DNA of 64,000 nucleotides from contig CP154954.1 in the NCBI GenBank assembly GCA_039621445.1, positions 38,301,703 to 38,365,702 of the forward strand, written 5' to 3'. The notes under the pieces were generated by a model. It was not told where the DNA came from and did no database searches. It saw only the letters and a list, made by a program, of their open reading frames with translations. Shown here one piece after another: positions 4,708 through 59,806 of the stretch. The DNA comes from Euglena gracilis. Taxonomy: Eukaryota. Every line of letters starts with the position of its first letter. Within the stretch, counting starts at the first letter, position 1. Position numbers and translations under genes: made by a program.

Positions 4708-5407
4708 CAGGGTTGGGCAATTAACCGTTATTATTGGGGTCAAGCGATTAACCATGGTTAACTGGGGGTCAACAAGCGATTAACCAATTTTCGATTAACT
4801 GTGCTTTTCCCTCGATTAATTTCGATTAACCACCACAAAAAAATTCAAAGTGTCCCCACCCTTGAGTAGTGTTGTACACCTTGCCAAATTGTGACTCCAG
4901 TGATTTGCGCAATCGCCTTGGTGATTGCTCCGTTGATGCGCTCATGTTTGTGCAAATGAATTTACGCCAACTTGGCTGTCTGGCCCATTTGACAGGCAAC
5001 GGAGATCCGTGGTTTTCATTTTTTTGGTTTGTTCGGCTCATGATCTATCCAATGAATGAGAGCCTGAGCTCTGGTTTGGCGACGATGATTTCAGGCACCT
5101 CTGATGACAATCACCACCCCTCCTCCGAAGGAGTTATGTTGGGTTTTGCAGTTGAAAAGTGCCTCTTTTCCAAAAGGGAACTTTAATTGCCCACACAACA
5201 GGGTCCATCCCAACCCAGTCCCCAAAGGTTAGAGAAATGTTCCCAAACCCATTTGATTTCTGCCAAAAAAAAGGTCGATTAACTGGGGGGGCCACAAGCG
5301 ATTAACCGTTTTTTGATTAACCATGGTTAATTGTCCCCCCCACAAACGATCGATTAACTGGGGGGTCACAAGCGATCAACCGTTTTTCGATTAACCATCC
5401 AACCATG
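4708..5407. mobile_element. hAT-like MITE (TIR cagggttgg...ccaacc(a/c)tg), 8-bp TSD cttttttt
   Basis: TSD at 4700-4707 and 5408-5415; subterminal cgattaacc repeats; second copy at 5659-8385. Confidence 0.85.
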
Positions 5408-6247: not shown

Positions 6248-7112
6248 AAAGTGTCCCTACCCTTGAGTAGTGTTGTACACCTTGCCAAATTGGTGCTTGA
6301 AAACATCATCCCCAAACCAGAGCTCGGACTCTCATTCATTGGATGGATCGTGAGCCAAACAAACCAAAAAAATGTAAACCACACGGATCTCCGTTGCCTG
6401 TCTAATGGGTCAGATAGCCAAGTTGGCGTAAATTCATTTGCACAAACACGAGCGCATCAACGGAGCAATCACCGGGGGTGGTTCGGGACGCGGGGGGGGG
6501 GACGCGGGGAGGGACGCGGGGGGACGCGGGGGGGAACCGTGGCCCAACCACCCCCACACATTTCCTTTGGCGTCACCTAAATTTGTATGCAATTTTCCTT
6601 TGGTCGACCAAAAAATGTGCCCGGCCAAAATCCGGGACGCGGGGGGGACGCGGGGGGGGGGGGACGCGGAGGGGGGACGCGGGGGGAACACCCCCACTAT
6701 GGCGATTGCGCAAATCACTGGGGTCACAGCTTCTTTTATCTGATGACAATTACCACCCCTCCTCCGAAGGGTTATGTTGGGTGTTGCAGTTGAAAAGTGC
6801 CTCTTTTCCAAAAGGGAACTTCAATTACCACACACAACGGGGTCCATCCCCACCCAGTGTCTACCATGCCCCCCCATTTCAGACCTCCCCTCGGGAGCCA
6901 AATCCTAGGGGGGGGCCTAGGCCCCCCAGGACCGGCCAAAGGGCCGGCCTTTGGCCGGCCAGGGGGGGTCCCCAAAGGGTAAAGAAATGTTCCCAAACCC
7001 AAGACATGTTTGATTTCCGCCAAAAAAAAAGGTCGATTAACTGGGGGGGCCACAAGCGATTATCCGTTTTTCGATTAACCATGGTTAATTGTCCCCCCCA
7101 CAAACGATCAAT

Positions 7113-8332
7113 TGTAACCGTGAATTGAGGCCCGGCGCCTGCCCTGTATTTCGTGGGTGTGAACACGAAATACAGGGCGTTATTTTCAATTCACGAATAC
7201 AGGCTGTATTTGTGAATTGGGTATTCACGAAATACAGGCTGTATTTCGTGAATTGTATTTTTTTGTTTTTAAACAGCTTCTGAAACTAGAAACCTTCTTG
7301 CATCACATCGTCTGAAGTAATTCAGAAAAAAACCAAATGCACAAAGCAAAAGAAAATTGAATGGCATGTCCTCGGTGATAAATGAGGGCGGTGCACAACT
7401 AGTGCAACGTCAAATAGCAAAGTGCCGTGGATTTATGCTGGGAAAGCTGACGAGGTTTGCACGAATGACACACCCATGACCCATGTTCGGGCTCATGGCA
7501 TAAATGCACACAACACCAGTGGTATGAAAGGGAACAAGCATCGCACTGCACTCGATTTCAAGGAGGTGAGCAAATGCGGATTGCTCTGTCCCTGCCATTC
7601 CGGACGCTTTCTTTTTGGCAGCCTCCAGCAGAAGGTTATCGTGCAGGGGGTCAACGGCAGGGTTCTTTCTGTTCTCCCAACCCTGCTTAATTGTGGCCAA
7701 AAATTCAGCAACTTTTGGGGGTTGCGTCAACGTTCTGTCCATGGTGTTTGCCGCTTTCTTCGCTATTTTTTGGAGAACAGAGTGAGGAGAAACACGGTGT
7801 GAAGGTGCGAAAATAGCACTAAAAAGCTCTAAAAAACAAAGAGCATTGTGGGGGGCCTTTGCGGGGGGACCGGCCGCCTTCGGCACCGCCCCCCCCCCCA
7901 AAGTGCCTCCCTATAACTTGGCCTTACATCCATATCTCATTTTCCAGGACCAGGGGTGTGTTATCAATGTGTTCCGGGTCATCTGGACAATGTTTTCACA
8001 TTTTGGTTTCAATTCACGGAATACAGGGCGTTATTTTCAATTCACGAATACAGGCTGTATTTGTGAATTGGGTATTCACGAAATACAGGCTGTATTTCGT
8101 GAATTGGATTTTTTGAAAATTTTGGGCAAAAAAAAGCCCCAAAAGTGCCCGAAACCATGGCGTGAAGCACATCAACGAAATACAGGGCAGGCGCCGGGCC
8201 TCTTAATTAACGGTTACAGAAAAATCGTGGGCTATAACCCGTATACAGGCCGTATAACGGGTCAAGGGCGCCTACGGCGCCCTTGACCCGTTATACGGCC
8301 TGTATACGGGTTATGCCCACGATTTTTATATA
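7113..8332 (-). mobile_element. TSD-less hairpin-ended element, family A (Crypton-like, internally deleted)
   Basis: IR tgtaaccgtgaattgaggcccggcgcctgccctgtatttcg at the left end, with its partner subterminal at about 8176-8218; near-perfect hairpin 8220-8327 with ggcgcc-tac-ggcgcc apex; no TSD relative to the empty site in 4708-5407. Confidence 0.8.
7399..7742 (-). pseudogene. Remnant ORF: N-terminus homologous to the 20984 ORF, fused out of frame to the C-terminal half of a PHD finger
   Basis: 7742-7560 reads MDRTLTQPPKVAEFLATIK...PAVDPL...EQSAFAHLLE; an alternative frame at 7557-7459 reads NRVQCDACSLSYHWCCVHLCHEPEHGSWVCHSC (CxxCxxxxHxxC...WxCxxC). Confidence 0.75.
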
Positions 8333-8737
8333 AACTGGGGGGGTCACAAGCGATTAACCGTTTTTCGATTAACCATCCAACCCTGGTGCAGGGGCGACCA
8401 CGGCACGAAGGCGCCGTGGTCGCCCCTGGGCCCCCCTAAAACCTTGGCCCAAAACACTGTTCTTGTTTGAAACCGTGTTTTGGGCGAAGATTTAAGACTT
8501 TTAAAGTCTCGAAATCGGCCCAAACACGGTTTCAGTGGTAGAACCCCTTTGGAGACCTCCCAACTCAACCCAACTGTCGACTTCAAAACCTGGGGGGGGG
8601 TGAAGAAGCCATTGGGGGTGTTCTCCCCGCGTCCCCCCCGCATCCCCCCTCCGCGTCCCCCCGCGTCCCGGATTTTGGCCGGGCACATTTTTTGGTCGAC
8701 CAAAGGAAAATTACATACAATTTTTGGTGACGCCAAT

Positions 8738-9560: not shown

Positions 9561-10111
9561 CTCCCCGGGGGGGGGGGGTCAGCCACTCAGGAAAACCAGT
9601 CACTTTTTGGCCTTTCAAAGCCATTTTGGGCCAAAATTTTCTCCGGCGCCTTCGGCGCCGGTTGGCCACTCAGCCACCTTTGGGTGATTTCTGGCCCTAG
9701 GGGGAGGGCCAAAAGACCAGTCAGTTGCTCACCCCCCCGGGGGGGGGGGGTGGGACAGGTGTTAAGTAACGGTCTGATTCAAACAGCCAAGGTGAAAGTG
9801 GTTTGTGGTGTCCCAAAAAGCAATTAGCATCAAAGGAGGAAAAAAAAAGTCGGTTTTTGGCCAAAATCAAACATCAAGAAGTGCCATGGGGTTTTTTTCA
9901 AGGGCTTTATTTCGGCCGCCAAAGGCGGCCGAGAAGGTGATGGGGGTGTCTGGGACGCGGGGGGGACGCGGGGGGGGACGCGGGGGGGGACGAGGGGGGG
10001 GGGGGACGCGGGGGGAACACCCCTGTGAAGTTCACAATTGGGTTTGGCAGGGGGTGGTTTGGACCCCTGGCGAACTTTCAAACGGTGAACTTCACTTTGG
10101 GGAGGAGGACG

Positions 10112-11148: not shown

Positions 11149-14100
11149 CATGCCCACCCTGTCGTTGGACTGGGTGTGCCGCACTATTGGGCTGTGCATC
11201 GAACAAAATTTTTCTGCGTCCCCCCCCGGACCCCACCTCCCCTGGGGGTGCCTTCTATTTCCAAAACAGGGCCATTTTTTTGTACCAAAATTGTATATCC
11301 ACCCCAGTGGTCCCCAAATGGTAAATTTCATTGGGGTTGTACCCCCTGCGACCCCCCACCACCGCACATGGAGGGTTTCCGCAACCCAATAGGGGCCAAA
11401 AAATGACCTGATTATCATGCCCCCCCCCTCATACCACCTCTTCCCCCTAATTGACCCCCCCCAATTGACCAAACGCCCCGGAGAAAATTTTTTGAACCCC
11501 CCCCCCTAATTGACTGCCCAGGGGGATTCTGTAGCACCCCTTATTTGACGGCACCCGCCCCCCCTAATTGACGCCCCCCTCCCCCCCCTAATTGAACCCC
11601 CCCTAATTGACCAAAAGGGGGGTGACCGTGGAGAGGGGCCCCGGGCGGATTCCTGTGGGTGCTCATCCTGGGGGTGATGCCGACCTGGTCGGCCCGACCA
11701 CCTGGTCGGCCCGACCATGGTCGGGCCGACCAGGTCGATAACTACCCCTGGGGGTGATACCGACCAGGTCGGTATCACCCCCAGAAATCTGCATTACCCC
11801 CCCCTCTTTGGAAATTTAACCCCCCCCCCGGGTTTCCAAAAGATGAGATCAACCTGCACCCGAAAAGGGGTTGGCAGATAAAAGGGGTTTATTTTGTTAA
11901 TGAAAGGGATAGGGTTAGGTCGACTTGCACCCGAAAAAGGGTTGGCAGATAAAAGGGGTTTATTTTGTTAATGAAAGGGATAGGGTTAGGTCGACTTGCA
12001 CCCGAAAAAGGGTTGGCAGATAAAAGGGGTTTATTTTGTTAATGAAAGGGATAGGGTTAGGTCGACTTGCACCCGAAAAAGGGTTGGCAAATAAAAGGGG
12101 TTTATTTTGTTAATGAAAGGGATAGGGTTAGGTCGACTTGCACCCGAAAAGGGGTTGGCAGATAAAAGGGGTTTATTTTGTTAATGAAAGGGATAGGGTT
12201 AGGTCGACTTGCACCCGAAAAAGGGTTGGCAGATAAAAGGGGTTTATTTTGTTAATGAAAGGGATAGGGTTAGGTCGACTTGCACCCGAAAAGGGGTTGG
12301 CAGATAAAAGGGGTTGGCAGATAAAAGGGTTTATTTTGTTAATGAAAGGGATAGGGTTAGGTCGACTTGCACCCGAGAAGGGGTTGGCAGATAAAAGGGG
12401 TTGGCAGATAAAAGGATAAAAGGGGTTGATTTTGTTAATGAAAGGGATAGGGTTAGGTCGACTTGCACCCGAGAAGGGGTTGGCAGATAAAAGGGGTTGG
12501 CAGATAAAAGGATAAAAGGGGTTGATTTTGTTAATGAAAGGGATAGGGTTAGGTCGACTTGCACCCGAAAAGGGGTTGGCAGATAAAAGGGGTTGGCGGA
12601 TAAAAGGGGTTTATTTTGTTAATGAAAGGGATAGGGTTAGGTCGACTTGCACCCGAGAAGGGGTTGGCAGAAAAATGGGGTTTATTTTGTTAATGAAAGG
12701 GATAGGTTTAGGTCGACTTGCACCCGAAAAGGGGTTGGCAGATAAAAGGGGTTTGTGAATGAAAGGGATAGGGTTAGGTCGACTTGCACCCGAAAAAGGG
12801 TTGGCAAATAAAAGGGGTTTATTTTGTTAATGAAAGGGACAGGGTTAGGTCGACTTGCACCCGAAAAGGGGTTGGCAGATAAAAGGGGTTGGCAGATAAA
12901 AGGATAAAAGGGGTTGATTTTGCTAATGAAAGGGATAGGGTTTGGTCGACTTGCACCCGAGAAGGGGTTGGCAGATAAAAGGGGTTGGCAGATAAAAGGG
13001 GTTGATTTTGTTAATGAAAGGGATAGGGTTAGGTCGACTTGCACCCGAGAAGGGGTTGGCAGATAAAAGCGGTTGGCAGATAAAAGGGGTTGATGTTGTT
13101 AATGAAAGGGATAGGGTTTGGTCGACTTGCACCCGAGAAGGGGTTGGCAGATAAAAGGGGTTTATTTTGTTAATGAAAGGGATAGGGGTCGACTTGCACC
13201 CGAAAAGGGGTTGGCAGATAAAAGGGGTTTATTTTGTTAATGAAAGGGATAGGGTTAGGTCGACTTGCACCCGAAAAAGGGTTGGCAGATAAAAGGGGTT
13301 TATTTTGTTAATGAAAGGGATAGGGTTAGGTCGACTTGCACCCGAAAAAGGGTTGGCAAATAAAAGGGGTTTATTTTGTTAATGAAAGGGATAGGGTTAG
13401 GTCGACTTGCACCCGAAAAGGGGTTGGCAGATAAAAGGGGTTTATTTTGTTAATGAAAGGGATAGGGTTAGGTCGACTTGCACCCGAAAAAGGGTTGGCA
13501 GATAAAAGGGGTTTATTTTGTTAATGAAAGGGATAGGGTTAGGTCGACTTGCACCCGAAAAGGGGTTGGCAGATAAAAGGGGTTGGCAGATAAAAGGGTT
13601 TATTTTGTTAATGAAAGGGATAGGGTTAGGTCGACTTGCACCCGAGAAGGGGTTGGCAGATAAAAGGGGTTGGCAGATAAAAGGATAAAAGGGGTTGATT
13701 TTGTTAATGAAAGGGATAGGGTTAGGTCGACTTGCACCCGAGAAGGGGTTGGCAGATAAAAGGGGTTGGCAGATAAAAGGATAAAAGGGGTTGATTTTGT
13801 TAATGAAAGGGATAGGGTTAGGTCGACTTGCACCCGAAAAGGGGTTGGCAGATAAAAGGGGTTGGCGGATAAAAGGGGTTTATTTTGTTAATGAAAGGGA
13901 TAGGGTTAGGTCGACTTGCACCCGAGAAGGGGTTGGCAGAAAAATGGGGTTTATTTTGTTAATGAAAGGGATAGGTTTAGGTCGACTTGCACCCGAAAAG
14001 GGGTTGGCAGATAAAAGGGGTTTGTGAATGAAAGGGATAGGGTTAGGTCGACTTGCACCCGAAAAAGGGTTGGCAAATAAAAGGGGTTTATTTTGTTAAT

Positions 14101-17100
14101 GAAAGGGACAGGGTTAGGTCGACTTGCACCCGAAAAGGGGTTGGCAGATAAAAGGGGTTGGCAGATAAAAGGATAAAAGGGGTTGATTTTGCTAATGAAA
14201 GGGATAGGGTTTGGTCGACTTGCACCCGAGAAGGGGTTGGCAGATAAAAGGGGTTGGCAGATAAAAGGGGTTGATTTTGTTAATGAAAGGGATAGGGTTA
14301 GGTCGACTTGCACCCGAGAAGGGGTTGGCAGATAAAAGCGGTTGGCAGATAAAAGGGGTTGATGTTGTTAATGAAAGGGATAGGGTTTGGTCGACTTGCA
14401 CCCGAGAAGGGGTTGGCAGATAAAAGGGGTTTATTTTGTTAATGAAAGGGATAGGGGTCGACTTGCACCCGAAAAGGGGTTGGCAGATAAAAGGGGTTTA
14501 TTTTGTTAATGAAAGGGATAGGGTTAGGTCGACTTGCACCCGAGAAGGGGTTGGCAGATAAAAGGGGTTGGCGGATAAAAGGGGTTTATTTTGTTAATGA
14601 AAGGGATAGGGTTAGGTCGACTTGCACCCGAGAAGGGGTTGGCAGACAAAAGGGGTTGGCAGATAAAAGGGGTTGATTTTGTTAATGAAAGGGATAGGGT
14701 TAGGTCGACTTGCACCCGAAAAGGGGTTGGCAGATAAAAGGGGTTTATTTTGTTAATGAAAGGGATAGGGTTAGGTCGACTTGCACCCGAAAAGGGGTTG
14801 GCAGATAAAAGGGGTTGGCAGATAAAAGGGGTTTATTTTGTTAATGAAAGGGATAGGGTTAGGTCGACTTGCACCCGAAAAGGGGTTGGCAGATAAAAGG
14901 GGTTGGCAGATAAAAGGATAAAAGGGGTTTATTTTGTTAATGAAAGGGATAGGGTTAGGTCGACTTGCACCCGAGAAGGGGTTGGCAGATAAAAGGGGTT
15001 GGCAGATAAAAGGATAAAAGGGGTTGATTTTGTTAATGAAAGGGATAGGGTTAGGTCGACTTGCACCCGAAAAGGGGTTGGCAGATAAAAGGGGTTGGCA
15101 GATAAAAGGGGTTTATTTTGTTAATGAAAGGGATAGGGTTAGGTCGACTTGCACCCGAGAAGGGGTTAAAAAAAAAATGGGGTTTATTTTGTTAATGAAA
15201 GGGATAGGGTTAGGTCGACTTGCACCCGAAAAGGGGTTGGCAGATAAAAGGGGTTTGTGAATGAAAGGGATAGGGTTAGGTCGCGTCGCACCCGAAGAAA
15301 AAAGGGTTGGCAAATAAAAGGGGTTTATTTTGTTAATGAAAGGGATAGGGTTAGGTCGACTTGCACCCGAAAAGGGGTTGGCAGATAAAAGGGGTTGGCA
15401 GATAAAAGGATAAAAGGGGTTGATTTTGTTAATGAAAGGGATAGGGTTAGGTCGACTTGCACCCGAGAAGGGGTTGGCAGATAAAAGGGGTTGGCAGATA
15501 AAAGGGGTTGATTTTGTTAATGAAAGGGATAGGGTTAGGTCGACTTGCACCCGAGAAGGGGCAGATAAAAGAGATTGGCAGATAAAAGGGGTTTATTTTG
15601 TTAATGAAAGGGATAGGGTTAGGTCGACTTGCACCCGAGAAGGGGTTGGCAGAAAAATGGGGTTTATTTTGTTAATGAAAGGGATAGGTTTTAGGTCGAC
15701 TTGCACCCGAAAAAGGGTTGGCAGATAAAAGGGGTTTATTTTGTTAATGAAAGGGATAGGGTTAGGTCGATTTGCACCCGAAAAGGGGTTGGCAGATAAA
15801 GGAGGTTGGCAGATAAAAGGGGTTTATTTTGTTAATGAAAGGGATAGGGTTAGGTCGACTTGCACCCGAGAAGGGGTTGGCAGATAAAAGGGGTTTATTT
15901 TGTTAATGAAAGGGATAGGGTTAGGTCGACGAAGGGGTTGGCAGATAAAAGGGGTTGGCAGATAAAAGGGGTTTATTTTGTTAATGAAAGGGATAGGGTT
16001 AGGTCGACTTGCACCCGAAAGGGGTTGGCAGAGATAAAAGGGGTTGGCAGATAGGGGTTTATTTTGTTAATGAAAGGGATAGGGTTAGGTCGACTTGCAC
16101 CCGAGAAGGGGTTGGCAGAAAAAGGGGGTTTATTTTGTTAATGAAAGGGATAGGGTTAGGTCGACTTGCACCCGAAAAGGGGTTGGCAGATAAAAGGGGT
16201 TTGTGAATGAAAGGGATAGGGTTAGGTCGACTTGCACCCGAAAAAGGGTTGGCAAATAAAAGGGGTTTATTTTGTTAATGAAAGGGATAGGGTTAGGTCG
16301 ACTTGCACCCGAAAAGGGGTTGGCAGATAAAAGGGGTTGGCAGATAAAAGGATAAAAGGGGTTGATTTTGCTAATGAAAGGGATAGGGTTTGGTCGACTT
16401 GCACCCGAGAAGGGGTTGGCAGATAAAAGGGGTTGGCAGATAAAAGGGGTTGATTTTGTTAATGAAAGGGATAGGGTTAGGTCGACTTGCACCCGAGAAG
16501 GGGTTGGCAGATAAAAGCGGTTGGCAGATAAAAGGGGTTGATGTTGTTAATGAAAGGGATAGGGTTTGGTCGACTTGCACCCGAGAAGGGGTTGGCAGAT
16601 AAAAGGGGTTTATTTTGTTAATGAAAGGGATAGGGGTCGACTTGCACCCGAAAAGGGGTTGGCAGATAAAAGGGGTTTATTTTGTTAATGAAAGGGATAG
16701 GGTTAGGTCGACTTGCACCCGAGAAGGGGTTGGCAGATAAAAGGGGTTGGCGGATAAAAGGGGTTTATTTTGTTAATGAAAGGGATAGGGTTAGGTCGAC
16801 TTGCACCCGAGAAGGGGTTGGCAGATAAAAGGGGTTGGCAGATAAAAGGGGTTGATTTTGTTAATGAAAGGGATAGGGTTAGGTCGACTTGCACCCGAAA
16901 AAGGGTTGGCAAATAAAAGGGGTTTATTTTGTTAATGAAAGGGATAGGGTTAGGTCGACTTGCACCCGAAAAGGGGTTGGCAGATAAAAGGGGTTTATTT
17001 TGTTAATGAAAGGGATAGGGTTAGGTCGACTTGCACCCGAAAAAGGGTTGGCAGATAAAAGGGGTTTATTTTGTTAATGAAAGGGATAGGGTTAGGTCGA

Positions 17101-19354
17101 CTTGCACCCGAGAAGGGGTTGGCAGATAAAAGGGGTTGGCAGATAAAAGGATAAAAGGGGTTGATTTTGTTAATGAAAGGGATAGGGTTAGGTCGACTTG
17201 CACCCGAAAAAGGGTTGGCAGATAAAAGGGGTTTATTTTGTTAATGAAAGGGATAGGGTTAGGTCGACTTGCACCCGAAAAAGGGTTGGCAGATAAAAGG
17301 GGTTTATTTTGTTAATGAAAGGGATAGGGTTAGGTCGACTTGCACCCGAAAAAGGGTTGGCAGATAAAAGGGGTTTATTTTGTTAATGAAAGGGATAGGG
17401 TTAGGTCGACTTGCACCCGAAAAGGGGTTGGCAGATAAAAGGGGTTGGCAGATAAAAGGGGTTTATTTTGTTAATGAAAGGGATAGGGTTAGGTCGACTT
17501 GCACCCGAGAAGGGGTTGGCAGATAAAAGGGGTTGGCAGATAAAAGGATAAAAGGGGTTGATTTTGTTAATGAAAGGGATAGGGTTAGGTCGACTTGCAC
17601 CCGAAAAAGGGTTGGCAGATAAAAGGGGTTTATTTTGTTAATGAAAGGGATAGGGTTAGGTCGACTTGCACCCGAAAAAGGGTTGGCAGATAAAAGGGGT
17701 TTATTTTGTTAATGAAAGGGATAGGGTTAGGTCGACTTGCACCCGAAAAAGGGTTGGCAGATAAAAGGGGTTTATTTTGTTAATGAAAGGGATAGGGTTA
17801 GGTCGACTTGCACCCGAAAAGGGGTTGGCAGATAAAAGGGGTTGGCAGATAAAAGGGGTTTATTTTGTTAATGAAAGGGATAGGGTTAGGTCGACTTGCA
17901 CCCGAGAAGGGGTTGGCAGATAAAAGGGGTTGGCAGATAAAAGGATAAAAGGGGTTGATTTTGTTAATGAAAGGGATAGGGTTAGGTCGACTTGCACCCG
18001 AGAAGGGGTTGGCAGATAAAAGGGGTTGGCAGATAAAAGGATAAAAGGGGTTGATTTTGTTAATGAAAGGGATAGGGTTAGGTCGACTTGCACCCGAAAA
18101 GGGGTTGGCAGATAAAAGGGGTTGGCGGATAAAAGGGGTTTATTTTGTTAATGAAAGGGATAGGGTTAGGTCGACTTGCACCCGAGAAGGGGTTGGCAGA
18201 AAAATGGGGTTTATTTTGTTAATGAAAGGGATAGGGTTAGGTCGACTTGCACCCGAAAAGGGGTTGGCAGATAAAAGGGGTTTGTGAATGAAAGGGATAG
18301 GGTTAGGTCGACTTGCACCCGAAAAAGGGTTGGCAAATAAAAGGGGTTTATTTTGTTAATGAAAGGGATAGGGTTAGGTCGACTTGCACCCGAAAAGGGG
18401 TTGGCAGATAAAAGGGGTTGGCAGATAAAAGGATAAAAGGGGTTGATTTTGCTAATGAAAGGGATAGGGTTTGGTCGACTTGCACCCGAGAAGGGGTTGG
18501 CAGATAAAAGGGGTTGGCAGATAAAAGGGGTTGATTTTGTTAATGAAAGGGATAGGGTTAGGTCGACTTGCACCCGAGAAGGGGTTGGCAGATAAAAGCG
18601 GTTGGCAGATAAAAGGGGTTGATTTTGTTAATGAAAGGGATAGGGTTTGGTCGACTTGCACCCGAGAAGGGGTTGGCAGATAAAAGGGGTTTATTTTGTT
18701 AATGAAAGGGATAGGGTTAGGTCGACTTGCACCCGAAAAAGGGTTGGCAGATAAAAGGGGTTTATTTTGTTAATGAAAGGGATAGGGTTAGGTCGACTTG
18801 CACCCGAAAAGGGGTTGGCAGATAAAAGGGGTTGGCAGATAAAAGGGTTTATTTTGTTAATGAAAGGGATAGGGTTTGGTCGACTTGCACCCGAGAAGGG
18901 GTTGGCAGATAAAAGGGGTTTATTTTGTTAATGAAAGGGATAAGGGTCGACTTGCACCCGAAAAGGGGTTGGCAGATAAAAGGGGTTTATTTTGTTAATG
19001 AAAGGGATAGGGTTAGGTCGACTTGCACCCGAGAAGGGGTTGGCAGATAAAAGGGGTTGGCGGATAAAAGGGGTTTATTTTGTTAATGAAAGGGATAGGG
19101 TTAGGTCGACTTGCACCCGAGAAGGGGTTGGCAGATAAAAGGGGTTGGCAGATAAAAGGGGTTGATTTTGTTAATGAAAGGGATAGGGTTAGGTCGACTT
19201 GCACCCGAGAAGGGGTTGGCAGATAAAAGGGGTTGGCAGATAAAAGGGGTTGATTTTGTAAATGAAAGGGATAGGGTTTGGTCGACTTGCACCCGAGAAG
19301 GGGTTGGCAGATAAAAGGGGTTTATTTTGCTAATGAAAGGGATAGGGTTAGGTC

Positions 19355-19525
19355 CAGGGCTGACGTTTTTTTTGTTTTAAAACAAAGCAAAAAAACTTTC
19401 ATGAATAAAAAGCAGTTTAAAAACGGTTTTTTGTTTCAAAAAAGAGTGTTTTTTTAAATAAAACACTGCAAATAGGAAAAAAACTTGTTTAAAAACAATT
19501 GTTTTAAAACAATGCCTCAGCCCTG
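19355..19525. mobile_element. hAT-like MITE inserted in the satellite, 8-bp TSD gttaggtc
   Basis: Perfect TSD; copy of 10112-10284. Confidence 0.9.
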
Positions 19526-19787
19526 GTTAGGTCGACTTGCACCCGAAAAGGGGTTGGCAGATAAAAGGGGTTGGCAGATAAAAGGGGTTGATTTTGTTAA
19601 TGAAAGGGATAGGGTTAGGTCGACTTGCACCCGAGAAGGGGTTGGCAGATAAAAGGGGTTTATTTTGTTAATGAAAGGGATAGGGTTAGGTCGACTTGCA
19701 CCCGAAAAAGGGTTGGCAGATAAAAGGGGTTAGGTCGACTTGCACCCGAAAAAGGGTTGGCAGATAAAAGGGGTTTATTTTGTTAAT

Positions 19788-21415
19788 AAAACCGTTAACC
19801 GTTCACGGGCTTCCCCACGTGAGGAAACGGGGTGCGTTCACGGGTGCGCACTACGGCACCCGTGAACGGACCCCGTTTTCACATATGCGCACCCGTGGTC
19901 GGTTCACGGGTGCACGCACGGCAGCCGTGGACGGAATTTTGCCTTTAAAAAAGGGAAAATATTTATGCAGTAGGGAAGAGGATTTGAAACAAATGGCGAA
20001 CCTGGTGAACTTGAGGGGTGGGGGCAGGAATGCAAGAGGTGGCATAGGGAACTGACACGCGACAAACTAAATTTCGGTGCGAGGCACATGCTCGCGATGC
20101 CTTTCGGCATGGTCAGAGGAACAACGGGACGGATAACTCAACGACAACCCTGACAAATCCACGCTTTTTTCGGCGCGCGACGCAGCTCAGCACACACAAA
20201 ATGATACGTCTCGCCACAAACGGAACAACGAACACTTTTGGCTGCACCCACATCCGTGTCACTAAAAGCACGCACACCACACCGTGGGCACAACGGAGTA
20301 GAGGACGGGGGTGCGGGTGGGAAAACGGAAGGGACAGCAGACAGAATTTGGATAACGGTGGCGCCTTCCGGCGCCGGGTCTGCGTTCTGTGTTCCCTTCG
20401 GCAGCCTTCAAAACTGTGAGCAACTCGTCCGCCTGCAAAACTGTGTTTGTCAACCCACCCTTGGCCTCCATTGCCTTTTTGGCCCTTTCGTGCGTGACGA
20501 GTGGCTTCATTAACGCATTGAACTGCGGGAACTGGGACACAGACGATGGTACAATGATGGCATAAACGGGAGCCAATGCCTTGTAAATGTTGCTTACAGC
20601 ATTTACATAGGTCCGAAAACTGGACACTGGCATGGAGCGAAGGCGCCCATCTTTTCCTGCCTTCTCCTGCCTTGTCTGGACCCAGGCATCGGCTTCCTGC
20701 TGCGTCTTGAAAAGTTCACGAGCATCAACGCACCATCTGGCCCATCCCACCAAAACTTCGTCCAAAGAGCCAAAAACAATGCCATGCCGGTTGCAAACAT
20801 CCATATACTCCAAAAAACACTTTACTGCGGCATGGTTCTTGGGGCCCAAGTCACAATTTTGACCACCGGTGGGGAGACTGCCTAAAAGGGCATCCACTGC
20901 AGCAGCTCCTAGGGAGCTGGCACCACGTAAAACAGCCAGAAATTCATCTACGTTGGGGGGGCGGGGCATCTGTGCTTCCATCATGTTGGCAAAACGCTTC
21001 ATTGGACTGTGGGGAAAAGCAGCAGACAGACAGATACACAAATGTTAAAAACCCCAAAAAATTCAAATTCCGATCACGGGTAACACCTTGCGCAACCGTG
21101 GTCGGTTCACGGGTGCACGCACGGCAGCCGTGGACGGAAATTCCGTTCACGGGTGCGCACTACGGCACCCGTGAACGGCCAAAGTTCACCCGTGAACGCC
21201 AAAAACGAGATTTTTGACCCCCTAGGCATCTCGTTAGGAAGCGCTTGCCTACTGCGAGGAAGCCCGTGAACTTGGTTAACGGTTTTAAGACAAAAGCGGG
21301 GTCCGATCACGATTCCCGGTGGAGAAACGGGGGGCGCCTACGGCCTACGGCCTACGCCTACGGCGCCCCCCGTTTCTCCACCGGGAATCGTGATCGGACC
21401 CCGCTTTTTCTTATA
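19788..21415 (-). mobile_element. TSD-less hairpin-ended element, family B (Crypton-like, internally deleted)
   Basis: Inserted in the satellite unit gttaat|gaaaggg without duplication; IR taaaaccgttaaccgttcacgggcttcc with subterminal partner at about 21258-21287; hairpin about 21287-21413 with (gcctacg)n loop; ends ttata. Confidence 0.85.
20138..20984 (-). pseudogene. Putative tyrosine-recombinase N-terminal region (about 195 aa) joined out of frame to a linker and a complete C-terminal PHD finger
   Basis: ORF MMEAQMPRPPNVDEFLAVLR...KDGRLRSMPVSSFRTYVNAVSNIYK...LQADELLTVL; a second frame ending at the stop 20140-20138 reads CPRCGVRAFSDTDVGAAKSVRCSVCGETYHFVCAELRRAPKKAWICQGCR (C4HC3). The recombinase call is by resemblance only; catalytic residues are absent. 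Confidence 0.7.
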
Positions 21416-24400
21416 GAAAGGGACAGGGTTAGGTCGACTTGCACCCGAAAAGGGGTTGGCAGATAAAAGGGGTTGGCAGATAAAAGGATAAAAGGGGTTG
21501 ATTTTGTTAATGAAAGGGATAGGGTTTGGTCGACTTGCACCCGAGAAGGGGTTGGCAGATAAAAGGGGTTGGCAGATAAAAGGGGTTGATTTTGTTAATG
21601 AAAAGCATAGGGTTTGGTCGACTTGCACCCGAGAAGGGGTTGGCAGATAAAAGGGGTTGGCAGATAAAAGGGGTTGATTTTGTTAATGAAAGGGATAGGG
21701 TTTGGTCGACTTGCACCCGAGAAGGGGTTGGCAGATAAAAGGGGTTTATTTTGTTAATGAAAGGGATAGGGGTCGACTTGCACCCGAAAAGGGGTTGGCA
21801 GATAAAAGGGGTTTATTTTGTTAATGAAAGGGATAGGGTTAGGTCGACTTGCACCCGAAAAGGGGTTGGCAGATAAAAGGGGTTGGCAGATAAAAGGATA
21901 AAAGGGGTTGATTTTGTTAATGAAAGGGATAGGGTTTGGTCGACTTGCACCCGAGAAGGGGTTGGCAGATAAAAGGGGTTGGCAGATAAAAGGGGTTGAT
22001 TTTGTTAATGAAAAGCATAGGGTTTGGTCGACTTGCACCCGAGAAGGGGTTGGCAGATAAAAGGGGTTGGCAGATAAAAGGGGTTGATTTTGTTAATGAA
22101 AGGGATAGGGTTTGGTCGACTTGCACCCGAGAAGGGGTTGGCAGATAAAAGGGGTTTATTTTGTTAATGAAAGGGATAGGGGTCGACTTGCACCCGAAAA
22201 GGGGTTGGCAGATAAAAGGGGTTGGCAGATAAAAGGGGTTGATTTTGTTAATGAAAGGGATAGGGTTAGGTCGACTTGCACCCGAGAAGGGGTTGGCGGA
22301 TAAAAGGGGTTGGCAGATAAAAGGGGTTTATTTTGTTAATGAAAGGGATAGGGTTAGGTCGACTTGCACCCGAGAAGGGGTTGGCAGATAAAAGGGGTTT
22401 ATTTTGTTAATGAAAGGGATAGGGTTAGGTCGACTTGCACCCGAAAAAGGGTTGGCAGATAAAAGGGGTTTATTTTGTTAATGAAAGGGATAGGGTTAGG
22501 TCGACTTGCACCCGAAAAGGGGTTGGTAGATAAAAGGGGTTGGCAGATAAAAGGGGTTGATTTTGTTAATGAAAGGGATAGGGTTAGGTCGACTTGCACC
22601 CGAGAAGGGGTTGGCAGATAAAAGGGGTTGGCAGATAAAAGGGGTTGATTTTGTTGATGAAAGGGATAGGATTAGGTCGACTTGCACCCGAGAAGGGGTT
22701 GGCAGATAAAAGGGGTTTATTTTGTTAATGAAAGGGATAGGGTTAGGTCGACTTGCACCCGAAAAGGGGTTGGCAGATAAAAGGGGTTGGCAGATAAAAG
22801 GGGTTGATTTTGTTAATGAAAGGGATAGGGTTAGGTCGACTTGCACCCGAAAAGGGGTGGGCAGATAAAAGGGGTTGGCAGATAAAAGGGGATTATTTTG
22901 TTAATGAAAGGGATAGGGTTAGGTCGGCTTGCACCCGAAAAGGGGTTGGCAGGTAAAAGGGGTTGGCAGATAAAAGGGGTTGATTTTGTTAATGAAACGG
23001 ATAGGGTTAGGTCGACTTGCACCCGAGAAGGGGTTGGCAGATAAAAGGGGTTTAATGTGACACCCCCCCTATTTGTCACCCCCCCAATAGTCGCCCCCCC
23101 TTGGGGGGGCGACAATTAGGGGGGGTTACCCATGGACCCATGGAAATGTGGGGTAAATTGAGTAACTCCCCCCCAATTGTCACCCCCCCTAATAGTCGCC
23201 AGGGGGGTCAAAACACTCCCGAGGGGTGCTATATAGGGTGGGGGGTCACGTTATTAAATTTTTTTAATTAAATTTTTACCTTACTTAACAATTGACCTAT
23301 TCAAACGAAGGGGGGGGGGCTTAAATTTCCAAAAGGTGGGGGGGGTAATGCGGATTTCTGGGGGTCGGGCCGACCAGGTCGGCATCACCCCCAGAGGTCG
23401 GTATCCCACCAACAGGGGTCGGGCCGACCACAGGTCGGGCCGACCAGGTCGGCATCACCCCCAGGATGAGCACCCACAGGAATCCGCACGGAGCCGTGGA
23501 GAGGTCCCACGTTGGAGATCAGGCAGTAGACTTTGGTCATTTTGACCCCCCCCCCCCTATGGCGAAGTTCACCGTTTGAAAGTTCACCGGGGGGTCCCGG
23601 ACCCCCTCCCCCCCCCCTCTGCCTAACCCATCGGTGAACTTCACCGGTGAAGTTCAACAAGAGAGTACTTTTTTTGGCCAAAAATGACCAAAAATGGCAT
23701 TTGGGTAAGTTTTCGGAAATTTCGATAAAATTCCATGAAGCATCAACCTCAAAATGACCATTTTGAGAGGAAAGGGGCAAATTTTTACCCATGAAAATTT
23801 CACCCCCAACCATCAAAACGGTGAAGTTCACCGGTGAACTTCACCAGTGAACTTCACCACCGAAAGCACCCCCCCCCCGGTGAATGTTCACCGGTGAACT
23901 TCACCGGGGGGGTCCACAGCCCCCCCACCCCTGCCTAAACTCCGTTCAATCAAGGGGGGGGGAGGTGGAATAAGACCCCCTGCCAAAATCCCAGGGGGGT
24001 GTTATTTGGCATGGTAGGAATTGGCACCCAAAGGAATCAAAACTACCAAAAAAAACGTGTGATAAATTCTTGACTGGATCTATTTTTGGACCCAAAAGTT
24101 TTCAGGACAGAGTCGTCATCCAGAAAACCCGTGGAGGGGGACGGCGGTTCTGCCCTGAACCCGGCGTCCCAAACGCCGGTTTAACCAGAAAAGGGGGAGG
24201 GGGGACGGTTTTGGGGACCCGAACTCGACAGCCTAGCCCCATTTGCCCCCCCCCCCCAGTGCAAAACAGTGGATGTGGGCGGGGGGCAATGGGTGGCCGG
24301 CTGACTAGTCGGCTGACCACCCAGTTGGATGGCCGACTAGGCCTAGTTGGTAGCTGGTCGGCGAGACGGGGTGGGGTGGGGGGGGGAGTGGTGGGTAGTC

Positions 24401-29347: not shown

Positions 29348-32300
29348 CTCCAGCACCACCTCCCTCCCGCCGCCGATCACTTGGTGACCGCCGGCGCCTC
29401 TCCCCTTCCTCAGCCACACAATTGCTCCGGACCAAAAACCACATCTTTGGTGAGAAAAGTCGGACAGAATCTCATTAAAATGTGGGGGAATCTCACAAAT
29501 TGTGAAGGAAAATGCCAACTGCAAAGACCTCCACCAGGGAAAATATCCATGATGAGCACCCCATGACGCAACCACCCGGGGCAATTTGGGCAAACCTGGA
29601 GTATTTCCCCTATTTGGAGCAATTGCATGCTGACAATTCCTCCCCGCCCCTCTCCCTCCTCTCCCCGCCGCCCTCCCCCTTCCACTCGCCCTCCCCATGC
29701 CGGCGCACAGGGTTGCATGGGAAGCTCCGCAGACATGAGGTAGTTGGCAGGGGAGGGTCACCCCCCCCGCCAGGGGGGTACGGTGGCGAGGGGGATCCAC
29801 CCCCCCCCAGTGTCAAAAGGAGGGTCCCCCCACCCCCCTCCCCCTCCTCCCCCTCCAAAAAAAATCTTCCGACGCTTCGCACTAAGTGTGCATTTTGGGA
29901 CTCTCTTGAGGCTCAGCATGAAATTTCGGCAAAATGGCCAAAAACGACGTCACTCGGGACAGGCGGGGAGTTGTGGGGAAATCAAAATACTGTTAGATGG
30001 GCCATTTTAAGGGCTGCAATTTTGTTCTCCGGACATTTCCTCTAATTCCCTGCCATTTTGAGAAATACCAGAAATTGATTTTTTGACCTCCCCAAAAAAC
30101 GGCCAAAATTTTCGACAACCGAAAACTGGGGGTTGGAGGCGGGGTCCTCCCAACCCCCCCCCCCATTTTGGAAGGATGCTGCCCCCACTCCCATCCCTCC
30201 TCCGAGATCCCATGCGGCCCTGCCGCCGCATCACCTGGTGATCGCCGGCCCGCCGCCCTCCCCCTTCGCCTCGCCTCGCCCTCCCCACGCCGGCACACAG
30301 GATTGCATGGGAAGTTTCGGAAGGAAGTCCGCAGACAGAGGTTGGTGGTAGCAACCCCCCCCGGGGGGGGGGCAAGCTGGCGGGGGGCCATTTCTGAGAA
30401 ATGCCCAAAAAGCTGATTTTTTTAACCCGGAAAATGGCCAAAAATTTCGGCAACCGAAAACTGGGGGTCGGAGGCGAGGACCCCCCCCCCAGCTTTGGAA
30501 GGGTGCTCCCCCCCACTCCCTCCTCCGAGATTCCCATGCGGCCCTGCCGCCGCATCACCTGGTGATCGCCGGCCCCGCCGCCCTCCCCCTTCGCCTCGTC
30601 GCCCTCCCCCTTCGCCTCGCCCTCCCCACGCCGGCACACAGGGTTGCATGGGAAGTTCCGCAGGCAGAGGTTGGTGGTAGCAACCCCCCCCCGGGGGGGG
30701 GCAAGGTGGCGGGGGGCCATTTCTGAGAAATGCCCAAAAAGCTGATTTTTTTAACCCGGAAAATGGCCAAAAATTTCGGCAACCGAAAACTGGGGGTCGG
30801 AGGCGAGGTCCTACCCCCCCCCCCCCCCAGCTTTGGAAGGGTGCTCCCCCCACTCCCTCCTCTGAGATTCCCATGCGACCCTGCCGCCGTATCACCTGGT
30901 GATCGCCGGCCCCCCCCCCCCCCCCCCTCGCCTCCTCCCCCCCACGCCGGCACACAGGGTTGCATGGGAAGTTCCGCAGACAGAGGTTGGTGGTAGCAAC
31001 CCCCCCCCCGGGGGGGGGCAAGGTGGCGGGGGGCCATTTCTGAGAAATGCCCAAAAAGCTGATTTTTTTAACCCGGAAAATGGCCAAAAATTTCGGCAAC
31101 CGAAAACTGGGGGTCGGAGGCGAGGTCCTACCCCCCCCCCCAGCTTTTGAAGGGTGCTCCCCCCCCACTCCCTCCTCTGAGATTCCCATGCGACCCTGCC
31201 GCCGTATCACCTGGTGATCGCCGGCCCCGCCGCCCTCCCCCTTCGCCTCGCCCTCCCCACGCCGGCACACAGGGTTGCATGGGAAGTTCCGCAGGCAGAG
31301 GTTGGTGGTAGCACCCCCCCCCCTGGGGGGGCAAGGTGGCGGGGGGCCATTTCTGAGAAATGCCCAAAAAGCTCATTTTTTTAACCCGGAAAATGGCCAA
31401 AAATTTCGGCAACCGAAAACTGGGGGTCGGAGGCGAGGTCCTCCCACCCCCCCCCCCAGCTTTGGAAGGGTGCTCCCCCCACTCCCTCCTCTGAGATTCC
31501 CATGCGACCCTGCCGCCGTATCACCTGGTGATCGCCGGCCCCGCCGCCCTCCCCCTTCGCCTCGTCGCCCTCCCCCTTCGCCTCGCCCTCCCCACGCCGG
31601 CACACAGGGTTGCATGGGAAGTTCCGCAGGCAGAGGTTGGTGGTAGCACCCCCCCCCCTGGGGGGGCAAGGTGGCGGGGGGCCATTTCTGAGAAATGCCC
31701 AAAAAGCTGATTTTTTTTAACCCGGAAAATGGCCAAAAATTTCGGCAACCGAAAACTGGGGGTCGGAGGCGAGGTCCTCCCCCCCCCCCCCCCCAGCTTT
31801 GGAAGGGTGCTCCCCCCCCACTCCCTCCTCCGAGATTCCCATGCGGCCCTGCCGCCGCATCACCTGGTGATCGCCGGCCCCGCCGCCCTCCCCCTTCGCC
31901 TCGCCATTCTCCCGGTGGCCCCCATCCTGGCCCTCCCGGCCCCCGCCCTGGCCCTCCCGGCCCCCGCCCTGGCCCTCCCGGCCCCCGCCCTGGCCCTCCC
32001 GGCCCCCGCCCTGGCCCTCCCGGCCCCCGCCCTGGCCCTCCCGGCCCCCGCCCTGGCCCTCCCGGCCCCCGCCCTGGCCCTCCCGGCCCCCGCCCTGGCC
32101 CTCCCGGCCCCCGCCCTGGCCCTCCCGGCCCCCGCCCTGGCCCTCCCGGCCCCCACCGTGTTGGCCCTCCCAGCGCCCACCCCGCTGGCCACACCATTGC
32201 TCAACGCCGGTCCTACCCCAACCGGGGGGCCGGGGGGGGGGGGTGGTGACCAACTGGTTTCTTCAGAGTGACTGACTGGTTTTTTGCCCCCCCCCAAGGG

Positions 32301-33559: not shown

Positions 33560-36500
33560 CGACACCACTGTCACCGGAGCCAGTGCTGGTGAACACCCTG
33601 CAGTAGCGAAACTTTGGCAATTATTTTTTTGGAATAATTCGGGGCGGGGGGGGGGCATGGGGGGAGGCGTGATTTTTCAGGGACAGATTGCCTCAATGCC
33701 AGCAAATTGGGGGGTGCCAAAAAGTGCGACCAGCCCCCGGGACCAGGTCGGCTGGGTTCCCCACCCCCAAAAACCCCACTGTCACCGGAACCACTGCTGG
33801 TAAAACACCCCGCAATAACAAAATTTTGGCCATTTTTCAGTGTAATTTGGGGCGGGGGCGGGGGGTGGGGGGGGGGGGCGTGATTTTTTGGGGCCAGATT
33901 GCCTCAATGCCAGGAATTTGGGGGGTGCCAAAAAGTGCGACCAGCCCCCGGGACCAGGTCGGCTGGGTTCCCCACCCCCAAAAACCCCACTGTCACCGGA
34001 ACCACTGCTGGTAAAACACCCCGCAATAGCGAAATTTTGGTAATTTTTAAGTGTAATTCGGGGCGGGGGGGGGGGGGGGGGGGGGCGTGATTTTTTGGGG
34101 CCAGATTGCCTCAATGCCAGGAATTTGGGGGGGGCAAAAAAGTGCGACCAGCCCCCGGGACCAGGTCGGCTGGGTTCCCCACCCCCAAAAACCCCACTGT
34201 CACCGGAACCACTGCTGTTAAAACACCCCGCAAAAGCGAAATTTTGGCCATTTTTAAGTGTAATTCGGGGCGGGGGCGGGGGGTGGGGGGGGGGCGTGAT
34301 TCTTTGGGGCCAGATTGCCTCAATGCCAGGAATTTGGGGGGTGCCAAAAAGTGCGACCAGGCCCCCGGGACCAGGTCGGCTGGGTTCCCCGCCGCCAAAA
34401 ACCCCACTGTCACCGGAACCACTGCTGTTAAAACACCCCGCAATAGCGAAATTTTGGTAATTTTTAAGTGTAATTCGGGGCGGGGGCGGGGGGTGGGGGG
34501 GGTCTTTGGGGCCAGATTGCCTCAATGCCAGGAATTTGGGGGGTGCCAAAAAGTGCGACCAGCCCCCGGGACCAGGTCGGCTGGGTTCCCCACCGCCAAA
34601 AACCCCACTGTCACCGGAACCACTGCTGGTAAAACACCCCGCAAAAGCGAAATTTTGGTAATTTTTAAGTGTAATTCGGGGCGGGGGCGGGGGGTGGGGG
34701 GGCGTGATTTTTTGGGGCCAGATTGCCTCAATGGCAGGTAATTGGGGGTGCCAAAAAGTGCGACCAGCCCCCGGGACCAGGTCAGCTGGGTTCCCCGCCC
34801 CCAAAAACCCCACTGTCACCGGAACCACTGCTGTTAAAACACCCCGCAATAGCGAAATTTTGGTAATTTTTAAGTGTAATTCGGGGCGGGGGCGGGGGGT
34901 GGGGGGGGGCGTGATTTTTTGGGGCCAGATTGCCTCAATGGCAGGAATTTGGGGGGTGCCAAAAAGTGCGACCAGCCCCCGGGACCAGGTCGGCTGGGTT
35001 CCCCACCCCCAAAAACCCCACTGTCACCGGAACCACTGCTGTTAAAACACCCCGCAATAGCGAAATTTTGGCCATTTTTAAGTGTAATTCGGGGCGGGGG
35101 CGGGGGGTGGGGGGGGGCGTGATTTTTTGGGGCCAGATTGCCTCAATGCCAGGAAATTGGGGGGTGCCAAAAAGTGCGACCAGGCCCCCGGGACCAGGTC
35201 AGCTGGGTTCCCCGCCCCCAAAAACCCCACTGTCACCGGAACCACTGCTGTTAAAACACCCCGCAATAGCGAAATTTTGGTAATTTTTAAGTGTAATTCG
35301 GGGCGGGGGCGGGGGGTGGGGGGGGGGCGTGATTTTTTGGGGCCAGATTGCCTCAATGCCAGGAATTTGGGGGGTGCCAAAAAGTGCGACCAGCCCCCGG
35401 GACCAGGTCGGCTGGGTTCCCCACCGCCAAAAACCCCACTGTCACCGGAACCACTGCTGGTAAAACACCCCGCAAAAGCGAAATTTTGGTAATTTTTAAG
35501 TGTAATTCGGGGCGGGGGCGGGGGGTGGGGGGGCGTGATTTTTTGGGGCCAGATTGCCTCAATGCCAGGAAATTGGGGGTGCCAAAAAGTGCGACCAGGC
35601 CCCCGGGACCAGGTCAGCTGGGTTCCCCGCCCCCAAAAACCCCACTGTCACCGGAACCACTGCTGTTAAAACACCCCGCAATAGCGAAATTTTGGTAATT
35701 TTTAAGTGTAATTCGGGGCGGGGGCGGGGGGTGGGGGGGGGGCGTGATTTTTTTGGGGCCAGATTGCCTCAATGGCAGGAATTTGGGGGGTGCCAAAAAG
35801 TGCGACCAGCCCCCGGGACCAGGTCGGCTGGGTTCCCCACCGCCAAAAACCCCACTGTCACCGGAAGCACTGCTGTTAAAACACCCCGCAATAGCGAAAT
35901 TTTGGCCATTTTTAAGTGTAATTCGGGGCGGGAGCGGGGGGTGGGGGGGGGCGTGATTTTTTGGGGCCAGATTCCCTCAATGCCAGGAAATTGGGGGGTG
36001 CCAAAAAGTGCGACCAGGCCCCCGGGACCAGGTCAGCTGGGTTCCCCACCCCCAAAAACCCCACTGTCACCGGAACCACTGCTGGTAAAACACCCCGCAA
36101 TAGCGAAATTTTGGTAATTTTTAAGTGTAATACGGAGCGGGGGCGGGGGGTGGGGGGGGGCGTGATTTTTTGGGGCCAGATTGCCTCAATGCCAGGAATT
36201 TGGGGGGTGCCAAAAAGTGCGACCAGCCCCCGGGACCAGGTCGGCTGGGTTCCCCACCCCCAAAAACCCCACTGTCACCGGAACCACTGCTGTTAAAACA
36301 CCCCAAAAGCGAAATTTTGGCCATTTTTTAAGTGTAATTCGGGGCGGGGGCAAGGGGTGGGGGGGGGCGTGATTTTTTGGGGCCAGATTGCCTCAATGCC
36401 AGGAATTTGGGGGGTGCCAAAAAGTGCGACCAGCCCCCGGGACCAGGTCGGCTGGGTTCCCCACCGCCAAAAACCCCACTGTCACCGGAACCACTGATGG

Positions 36501-59404: not shown

Positions 59405-59439
<35 letters not shown>

Positions 59440-59478
59440 CATCATCATCATCATCATCATCATCATTATTATTGTTGC

Positions 59479-59532
<54 letters not shown>

Positions 59533-59593
59533 TGCTATTATTATCATTATCATCATCATCATCATTATTCTTATTCTTATTCTTCTTCTTCTT

Positions 59594-59624
<31 letters not shown>

Positions 59625-59769
59625 TTATCATCATCATCATCATCATCATCATTATTATTATTATTACCATCATCATCATCATCATCATTATTATTATTAC
59701 CATCATCATCATCATCATCATCATTATTATTATTACCATCATCATCATCATCATCATTATTATTATTAC

Positions 59770-59806
<37 letters not shown>

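Follow-up and report, generated by a model that had tools for sequence, protein, structure and literature searches.

What kind of mobile element leaves behind insertions that share almost no DNA and yet end in the same way and carry remnants of the same gene? This question is raised by a 64,000-nucleotide stretch of Euglena gracilis contig CP154954.1 (assembly GCA_039621445.1, forward-strand positions 38,301,703 to 38,365,702), hereafter the window, in which we analyzed an insertion called element B and compared it with a second one, element A. We consider it probable that element B derives by internal deletion from a high-copy DNA transposon with a gene for a Cre-like tyrosine recombinase (YR) and is itself non-autonomous, and that element A stands for another, distant family of this group. 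What fits both best is a Crypton-like YR DNA transposon whose structured ends are Helitron2-like. An initial annotation, made from the sequence alone, had already pointed to the common end architecture and to the common protein remnants; the identity of the recombinase, the internal deletions, the subterminal direct repeats of family-specific palindromic motifs and the Helitron2-like plan go beyond it. The two elements are:

7114..8332, plus strand: element B, the whole 1219-bp insertion, a non-autonomous internal-deletion copy with its own gene on the minus strand
19788..21415, plus strand: element A, the comparison copy from the second, distant family, within a 71/88-bp satellite and without target-site duplication (TSD)

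Logan contigs from four public runs of one organism, chosen because they contain the stretch of element B, were mapped onto 6800-8700. Contigs of all four runs join 7113 directly to 8333, and the 1219 skipped bases end GT..TA. Since this joint fixes the insertion at 7114-8332, element B starts at 7114; the span first proposed, 7113-8332, keeps its right end and loses one base at its start. T7113 is a base of the flank, despite pairing with A8218. At the joint, no base fits both sides in the contigs of the four runs, which means that there is neither a TSD nor microhomology. Element B lies in a short tandem repeat, of which an uninterrupted sister copy is present at about 5270-5400; there the empty sister site (~5349-5355) reads gatcgatt followed directly by aactgg. 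This sister site and the contig joint together bear out the earlier statement that no TSD is seen against an empty site. Element A, in turn, breaks up a satellite unit precisely between ...ttgttaat and gaaaggga..., without duplication, and judged by eye its ends and its target have 0 bases in common. In both target sites (n=2, by eye) the 5′ flank ends with T and the 3′ flank begins with RA, which is too few for a consensus.

Contigs on element B number thousands, at 88-99% likeness. They show further internal-deletion joints (7166 to 8090, 7257 to 8110, 7938 to 8172, 7593 to 7649, and 7703 to 7893), and in run X16 a loose end at 8326 marks a different copy that ends ...ATATA and then passes into another flank. 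The summed contig depth is greater over the ends of element B than over its interior; it is not a copy number and is only a hint of short derivatives.

The empty-site joint bears on the idea that the long hairpin at the right end of each element is a separate repeat, or a preferred target, lying beside an element with terminal inverted repeats. GC-clamped mini-hairpins with GGCGCC arms are common in the window, as such an idea would have it, but the empty-site joint skips 7114-8332 in one piece, hairpin included, element A likewise lies in its satellite as one piece with its hairpin, and the hairpin stands at the same distance from the right repeat in both families. We find a separate hairpin scarcely credible.

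The repeats that house the two elements have features of their own. The host repeat of element B (5270-5400; 7030-7112 with 8333-8400) consists of ~74-bp tandem units with flanking G/C runs, and contains GATTAACCGTTTTTCGATTAACC, with the same TTAACCGT core as the termini of the elements, either by chance or as the relic of a related element. To the right of element B, a repeat at 8389-8540 holds a 16-bp perfect hairpin (8389-8404/8413-8428) and 20-nt inverted repeats (8468-8487/8515-8534), and has the top summed contig depth within 6800-8700. The satellite that houses element A extends over 11 kb (11855-23052) in units of 71/88/96 bp (GGTTGGCAGATAAAAGGGG...), with a G-over-C skew of ~0.57.

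Within the limits set by the contig joint, the ends of element B are built from the following parts:

7114..7161, plus strand: left terminal inverted repeat, 48 nt; its first 13 nt, GTAACCGTGAATT, with an AACCGT core, are common with family A
8168..8217, plus strand: right (subterminal) inverted repeat, 50 nt, with two extra T's at 8203-8204
7141..7178, plus strand: 5′ hairpin with 15-bp arms (7141-7155/7164-7178), 100% paired, −20.4 kcal/mol, z −5.9
7164..7263, plus strand: subterminal direct repeat, copy 1, 100 bp, 98% alike to copy 2
8015..8114, plus strand: subterminal direct repeat, copy 2, from the repeat search
8220..8327, plus strand: long hairpin whose 52-bp stem has a single bulged T, with TAC as the loop and GGCGCC on each side of it
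8328..8332, plus strand: ATATA tail, the final bases according to the contig joint; the element ends ...TATATA

The repeat search pairs the two arms over 35 nt (94%) and 17 nt (88%). Read the same way, they are GTAACCGTGAATT--GAGGCC... (longer: GTAACCGTGAATT--GAGGCCCGG...) on the left and GTAACCGTTAATTAAGAGGCC... (longer: GTAACCGTTAATTAAGAGGCCCGG...) on the right, the extra TT of the right arm coming after terminal base 13. In the 5′ hairpin, the inner part of the left repeat pairs with sequence immediately downstream of it. The direct repeats are composed of CACG(A)AATACAG motifs, and all nine matches of this motif in the window fall in 7144-7250 and 8015-8101. The long hairpin begins two bases past the right arm; its arms 8234-8272/8276-8314 are complementary over all 39 nt and are extended by 8214-8232/8315-8333. 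Folded as DNA, it reaches −68.4 kcal/mol (z −19.2), and none of 200 shuffles folds as well. When the whole strand of the 1.2-kb element is folded, the TT bulges out from the paired arms, which stand one base away from the long hairpin; this would bring both termini together, a geometry predicted from thermodynamics only. Because Rfam gave 0 matches and a tRNA scan 0 genes across the window, the hairpins in it are not known RNAs.

The same plan was found in element A:

19788-19814 and 21258-21286, plus strand: inverted repeats of element A, 27/29 nt, with TT at 21272-21273
21286-21413, plus strand: hairpin of element A, 56-nt arms, −73.8 kcal/mol, z −18.05

Here the arms read AAAACCGTTAACC--GTTCACGGG (also as AAAACCGTTAACC--GTTCACGGGCTTCC) and AAAACCGTTAACCAAGTTCACGGG (also as AAAACCGTTAACCAAGTTCACGGGCTTCC). 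With element B starting at 7114, the two elements keep exactly the same register, with AACCGT at positions 3-8 and the extra dinucleotide after position 13. The bulged subterminal repeat that had been described for both is thus seen with the same dinucleotide at the same position in A (21272-21273) and in B (8203-8204). All three occurrences of the 9-mer TTAACGGTT in the window lie at ends of A or B. Both ends of element A likewise contain subterminal repeat modules, which are directly oriented and based on a motif of its own, GTTCACGGG; the 9 matches of this motif in the window are all inside A.

As the initial annotation had stated, the DNA of the two elements is otherwise hardly similar: the best blastn match is 14 nt long and corresponds to the hairpin apex, and no other similarity was detected. 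Its description of the hairpins holds for the stem of about 50 bp (52 bp in B, 56-nt arms in A) and for the motif of the apex, which is the same in both but not literally identical, since in A the GGCGCC-TAC... motif of B is expanded by CCTACGG repeats. The apex of B, GGCGCCTACGGCGCC, has its only exact match in the window at 8267-8281. The TATA end is found in both, as ...TATATA in B and ...CTTATA in A. The strongest sign that structure is what is kept comes from the stems, which have no common sequence and yet are near-perfect in both elements, at the same distance from the right repeat. That these parts are cis-elements of a whole superfamily was also proposed; a conservation of bulge, apex, and TATA end across such a superfamily would rest on these two families (n=2).

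GGCGCC-loop-GGCGCC palindromes are also found outside the terminal hairpins, at 9645-9659, 20358-20375, and 7868-7890; the palindrome within A encodes PAPEGA of the recombinase-PHD linker. Because such mini-hairpins occur elsewhere in the window (for instance at 9645-9659), the apex is weakened as a specific mark. A protein-guided scan for related loci confirmed none of the pattern matches in metagenome contigs (0/19), genome contigs (0/11), or viral contigs (0/13). The pattern TTAACGGTT-N40-65-GGCGCCTACGG retrieved 13 loci from metagenome contigs, none with the long hairpin or the repeat plan; 5 of them represent a single conserved gene-like stretch, and the other loci are unrelated.

The end plan of element B equals the published plan of Helitron2, which, as described in PMC3627910, has a 5′ inverted repeat 0-2 bp from the end, a 3′ repeat just upstream of a 3′ hairpin, a 5′ hairpin that uses part of the 5′ repeat, repeats of 8-15 bp, and no TSD. 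Element B could accordingly be a Helitron2/Helentron rolling-circle element, mobilized in trans by a Rep-helicase and carrying captured fragments of a recombinase-PHD gene. The dimensions do not agree with this, with repeats of 27-50 nt as against 8-15 bp and hairpin stems of more than 50 bp; further evidence comes from the gene itself.

Both elements contain an open reading frame (ORF) on the minus strand, of 259 amino acids in A (20262-21041) and shorter in B (7410-7901). A phmmer search with the A ORF against 1.84 billion cluster representatives returned 117 at E <= 1e-3, 47 at E <= 1e-10, and 4 at E <= 1e-30, and full-length relatives measure about 440-590 amino acids. A family profile made of 16 outside homologues was searched against the 1346 six-frame ORFs of at least 30 amino acids in the window, and it matches exactly two of them, those of A and B:

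20400..21002, minus strand: recombinase N-terminal domain of element A, whole (hmmsearch E 1.6e-55, profile positions 3-204)
7554..7763, minus strand: remnant of the recombinase N-terminal (core-binding) domain of element B (hmmsearch E 9.8e-9, profile positions 2-70)

The remnant in B is also matched in tblastn by P0021, P0022, and P0038, and in BLASTP it is identical to P0038 at 29 of 53 residues. The initial annotation had aligned the two N-termini and named their being unrelated as the result that would speak against it; they are related, with a BLASTP E of 2e-5 (20/52 identical) and one profile that matches both ORFs. The 117 representatives and this profile also support its claim of one diversified family.

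The fold of the protein is scarcely visible to sequence methods and was recognized in structure models. An AlphaFold2 (AF2) model of the full-length relative P0015, with a predicted local distance difference test score (pLDDT) of 79.4, was compared with the PDB by Foldseek. Cre/Tre came out on top (E 1.2e-7, prob 1.0, ~410 columns), followed by XerH, XerA, Tn1549 Int, and integron integrase, with 53 matches at E <= 0.001 in all. The ESM Atlas model of P0031 itself matches integrases, in agreement with P0015. As modeled, the protein family has the two-domain YR fold, with a core-binding and a catalytic domain. In the alignment of 16 sequences (P0015 numbering), Arg234, Lys267, and Arg362 are invariant and Arg361 is nearly so; by our own reading of this alignment, each of the 14 rows that extend to position 392 has a Tyr there. 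The nearest clusters by Atlas features are eukaryotic YRs, including NDC10_II-type and oomycete core-binding-domain proteins, and serve as leads only. A homologous-protein search with the A ORF and the longer proteins found none. Because a Euglena gracilis transcript product (so labeled by its source) is identical to the A ORF at 194 of 197 residues, the window is very probably nuclear DNA of this species and the recombinase family is transcribed. A Pfam scan of 10 large ORFs of the window yielded nothing that points to a host. A family member of 476 amino acids, P0040, is filed under the carnivorous plant Genlisea aurea as a hypothetical protein; our guess is that this entry is a contamination, probably from a protist in the traps of the plant.

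The remainder of the gene is broken in both elements, as seen from these parts:

20141..20386, minus strand: linker and complete PHD finger of element A, out of frame with the N-domain; 67/82 identical to the C-terminus of P0129 (82%)
7450..7551, minus strand: C-terminal PHD half of element B (Cys3-Cys4-His-Cys6...Trp-x-Cys7-x2-Cys8); P0038 residues 170-183 are 86% identical here
7551..7554, no strand: internal-deletion breakpoint of element B; in runs X1 and X6, contigs have loose ends before it (7551) and behind it (7554)

Both elements are internal-deletion derivatives. The A ORF tracks P0001 (92% identical) up to ...KAAEGNT, where P0001 enters the catalytic domain; the homology to P0001 stops at 20388, and the deletion junction lies at ~20386-20388. 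Beyond it, the PHD finger of A has the whole C4HC3 pattern, C-x2-C-x16-C-x2-C-x4-H-x2-C-x11-(W-I)-C-x2-C, with a Trp before Cys7, and scores 22.6 bits in Pfam, just below the cut-off of 24. P0129 has a basic KRVLKLE stretch upstream of the linker. Element B breaks after about 70 residues of the N-domain and goes on with the second PHD half, limited to Cys3 to Cys8, as had been noticed before; the PHD parts of A and B align at E 2e-7. The loose ends at 7551/7554 show that longer copies continue differently on both sides, and the reverse complement of the 7551 consensus gives, in our own reading, roughly EVCSALGAVY, to be compared with DVCNALCAVY in P0038. The order of N-terminal domain and PHD finger that had been proposed recurs as fusions, each with its own breakpoint, in 5 of 126 retrieved proteins (P0007, P0019, P0038, P0107, and P0118). 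The palindrome GGCGCC-GGAAGG-CGCC at the deletion junction of A was considered as filler DNA and rejected, because the residues that it encodes, PAPEGA, also occur in the linker of P0129, which is intact.

Taken in order, the complete gene would encode an N-terminal core-binding domain, a catalytic domain, a basic linker, and a C-terminal PHD finger. This recombinase-PHD gene is probably the element's own and not cargo, because A and B carry it at the same position and in the same orientation, because the fusions of N-part and PHD differ in breakpoint and P0129 joins the basic linker to the PHD finger, and because contigs that encode full-length recombinases are at most 3.2 kb long (gene-bearing contigs, 1-3.2 kb). 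If an own gene fills the interior, nested deletions that keep both gene ends are to be expected.

These observations also tell against the capture of gene fragments by a Helitron2. Two families with almost no common DNA agree in the gene that they carry, in its place, and in its orientation; deletions that keep both gene ends are seen in five or more further lineages; and contigs of at most 3.2 kb with a full-length recombinase leave no room for a Rep-helicase. No Rep-helicase turned up either, in a scan of the window that was not exhaustive. In spite of the likeness of the ends, we therefore hold a Helitron2 origin to be unlikely.

A YR gene together with inverted repeats might also be what is left of a decayed DIRS-like or VIPER-like YR retrotransposon, in which the inverted repeats would be its inverted terminal repeats and the subterminal direct repeats its split direct repeats. 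DIRS-type elements, which combine a YR with inverted terminal repeats, are reported from Euglena and kinetoplastids (10.64898/2026.05.21.726589; PMC6681497), and element B does have 100-bp direct repeats inside its inverted repeats. However, none of the 22 homologues scanned contains a reverse-transcriptase, RNase H, or methyltransferase family, the contigs bearing the gene measure 1-3.2 kb, and the many nested internal deletions, in which both ends are retained, follow the pattern of cut-and-paste DNA elements. A retrotransposon origin strikes us as quite improbable.

Several points weigh against a Crypton-like YR transposon as well. No full-length DNA copy was observed, so that the complete element may contain a second gene. 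The empty-site contigs stem from the host repeat and, because this repeat is multi-copy, represent paralogous sites and are no proof of excision. Microhomology between ends and target is absent, unlike in published Cryptons. The predicted full-length proteins are without PHD, and its placement in one frame is inferred from the deletion derivatives and P0129; an intron or a frameshift after the basic stretch may separate the PHD finger from the recombinase prediction. In the catalytic domain, judged by the alignment only, the usual His of H-x-x-R is replaced, with K-D-x-x-R-R instead, and the second His varies. No more than 2 of the 22 proteins scanned match Pfam Phage_integrase (PF00589), with E 0.001-0.003 and scores of 17.9-19.3 bits where the cut-off is 27.1, and a profile search of PDB sequences gave nothing significant, with weak helix-turn-helix matches and XerC at E 1.6. 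Finally, the paired change 8245 A>T / 8303 T>A in the long hairpin may be a mirror artefact; we do not count it as covariation, since a single change can be mirrored onto both arms when short contigs are placed on a palindrome.

How would such a transposon move? The recombinase would be supplied in trans by full-length copies, and the copies in the window would either move in trans or be dead. It is predicted to bind the 13-bp termini as core sites, because their size matches that of recombinase core-site arms, and the family-specific repeated motifs as accessory sites; PMC3212892 gives recombinase sites as 11-13 bp arms around 6-8 bp. Excision and reinsertion would proceed by conservative strand exchange without DNA synthesis, which would account for the missing TSD. 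With the two-base offset and the hairpin, the two ends would differ in function, and the PHD finger may direct insertion to particular chromatin. We also tried to fit a Cre-type site (13-bp arms, 6-8-bp spacer) to the joined ends with an extruded hairpin, and rejected it, as the spacer would be 7 nt in B and 2 or 12 nt in A, which is inconsistent.

The substrate may be either a double-stranded circle, as in the Crypton model, or a folded single strand. The absence of bases common to ends and target is unusual for tyrosine recombinases. A eukaryotic YR transposon acting on folded single strands, in which the arms pair with a two-base bulge and stack on the 3′ hairpin for the recombinase to cut and join, is a tentative proposal drawn by analogy, and we think it rather doubtful. 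Folding would bring the termini next to each other, in the manner of integron attC sites or CTX-phage attP. Should it be true, the ends would resemble those of Helitron2 and IS200/IS605 because an enzyme of another class had converged on a mechanism that is guided by structure and leaves no TSD.

Elsewhere in the window, a hairpin at 54830-54976 with 66-nt arms (94%) and the direct repeat CCCCCTGGTCACTCTAAATGGCCCCCC on both sides may be another small structured element. The window also contains a 20-kb tandem array at 33565-53349 (95.5 copies of a 207-bp unit, 92% matches), a 335-bp tandem repeat in 4 copies followed by a 21-bp repeat in 11 copies (30593-32154), and a (TCA)n tract of about 150 units (59370-59825).

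Compared with known systems, the family of A and B resembles Cryptons in its YR fold and in lacking a TSD; the YR is the only gene seen, and among the 22 homologues scanned, no reverse transcriptase or other enzyme family was found. It differs in its 27-50-nt inverted repeats, in its long terminal hairpin, and in having 0 joint bases in common. By contrast, published Cryptons, according to PMC3212892 and PMC13465315, have no terminal inverted repeats and are flanked by 4-6-bp direct repeats matching the target. In place of GCR1_C, DUF3504, or C48 peptidase, A and B have a PHD finger. The recombinase shares the two-domain fold with Cre, XerH, and the Tn1549 integrase (Foldseek E 1.2e-7 to 2e-4, template modeling score by target 0.47-0.61), but with only 10-15% identity, with K-D-x-x-R-R at the H-x-x-R site, and with the C-terminal PHD extension.

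Bacterial recombinases act on folded single strands at integron attC sites, with their extrahelical bases, and at CTX-phage attP, used by XerCD. The ends of A and B are like these sites in that imperfect inverted repeats leave a fixed unpaired element and structure is kept rather than sequence. They differ in that the sites are bacterial and short, while a single-stranded state of the Euglena element is hypothetical.

In our search of the literature, no description of such elements in euglenids was found; supplementary files, which lay outside this search, may list such repeats. Unclassified repeats make up 32.7% of the 2.37-Gb Euglena gracilis assembly according to PMC11252322, and recombinase genes across this genome are described as abundant, expressed, and uncharacterized in a preprint (10.1101/2025.04.23.650285). 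The family of A and B would give a name and an anatomy to part of this unclassified fraction, and would extend the eukaryotic recombinase-only transposons to Euglenozoa, with an end architecture said to be lacking in published Cryptons.

The closest likeness in the ends is to Helitron2 and Helentrons, with asymmetric inverted repeats, a hairpin outside the right repeat, and no TSD in both A and B, and a 5′ hairpin made from the left repeat in B; the whole-strand fold predicted for B corresponds to the end geometry published in PMC3627910. The differences are that A and B encode a tyrosine recombinase and not a Rep-helicase, that their repeats and hairpin are several times longer, and that their termini are AACCGT...TATA and not T...hairpin. 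A Cre-like enzyme combined with Helitron2-like ends could show how a tyrosine recombinase transposes without target homology.

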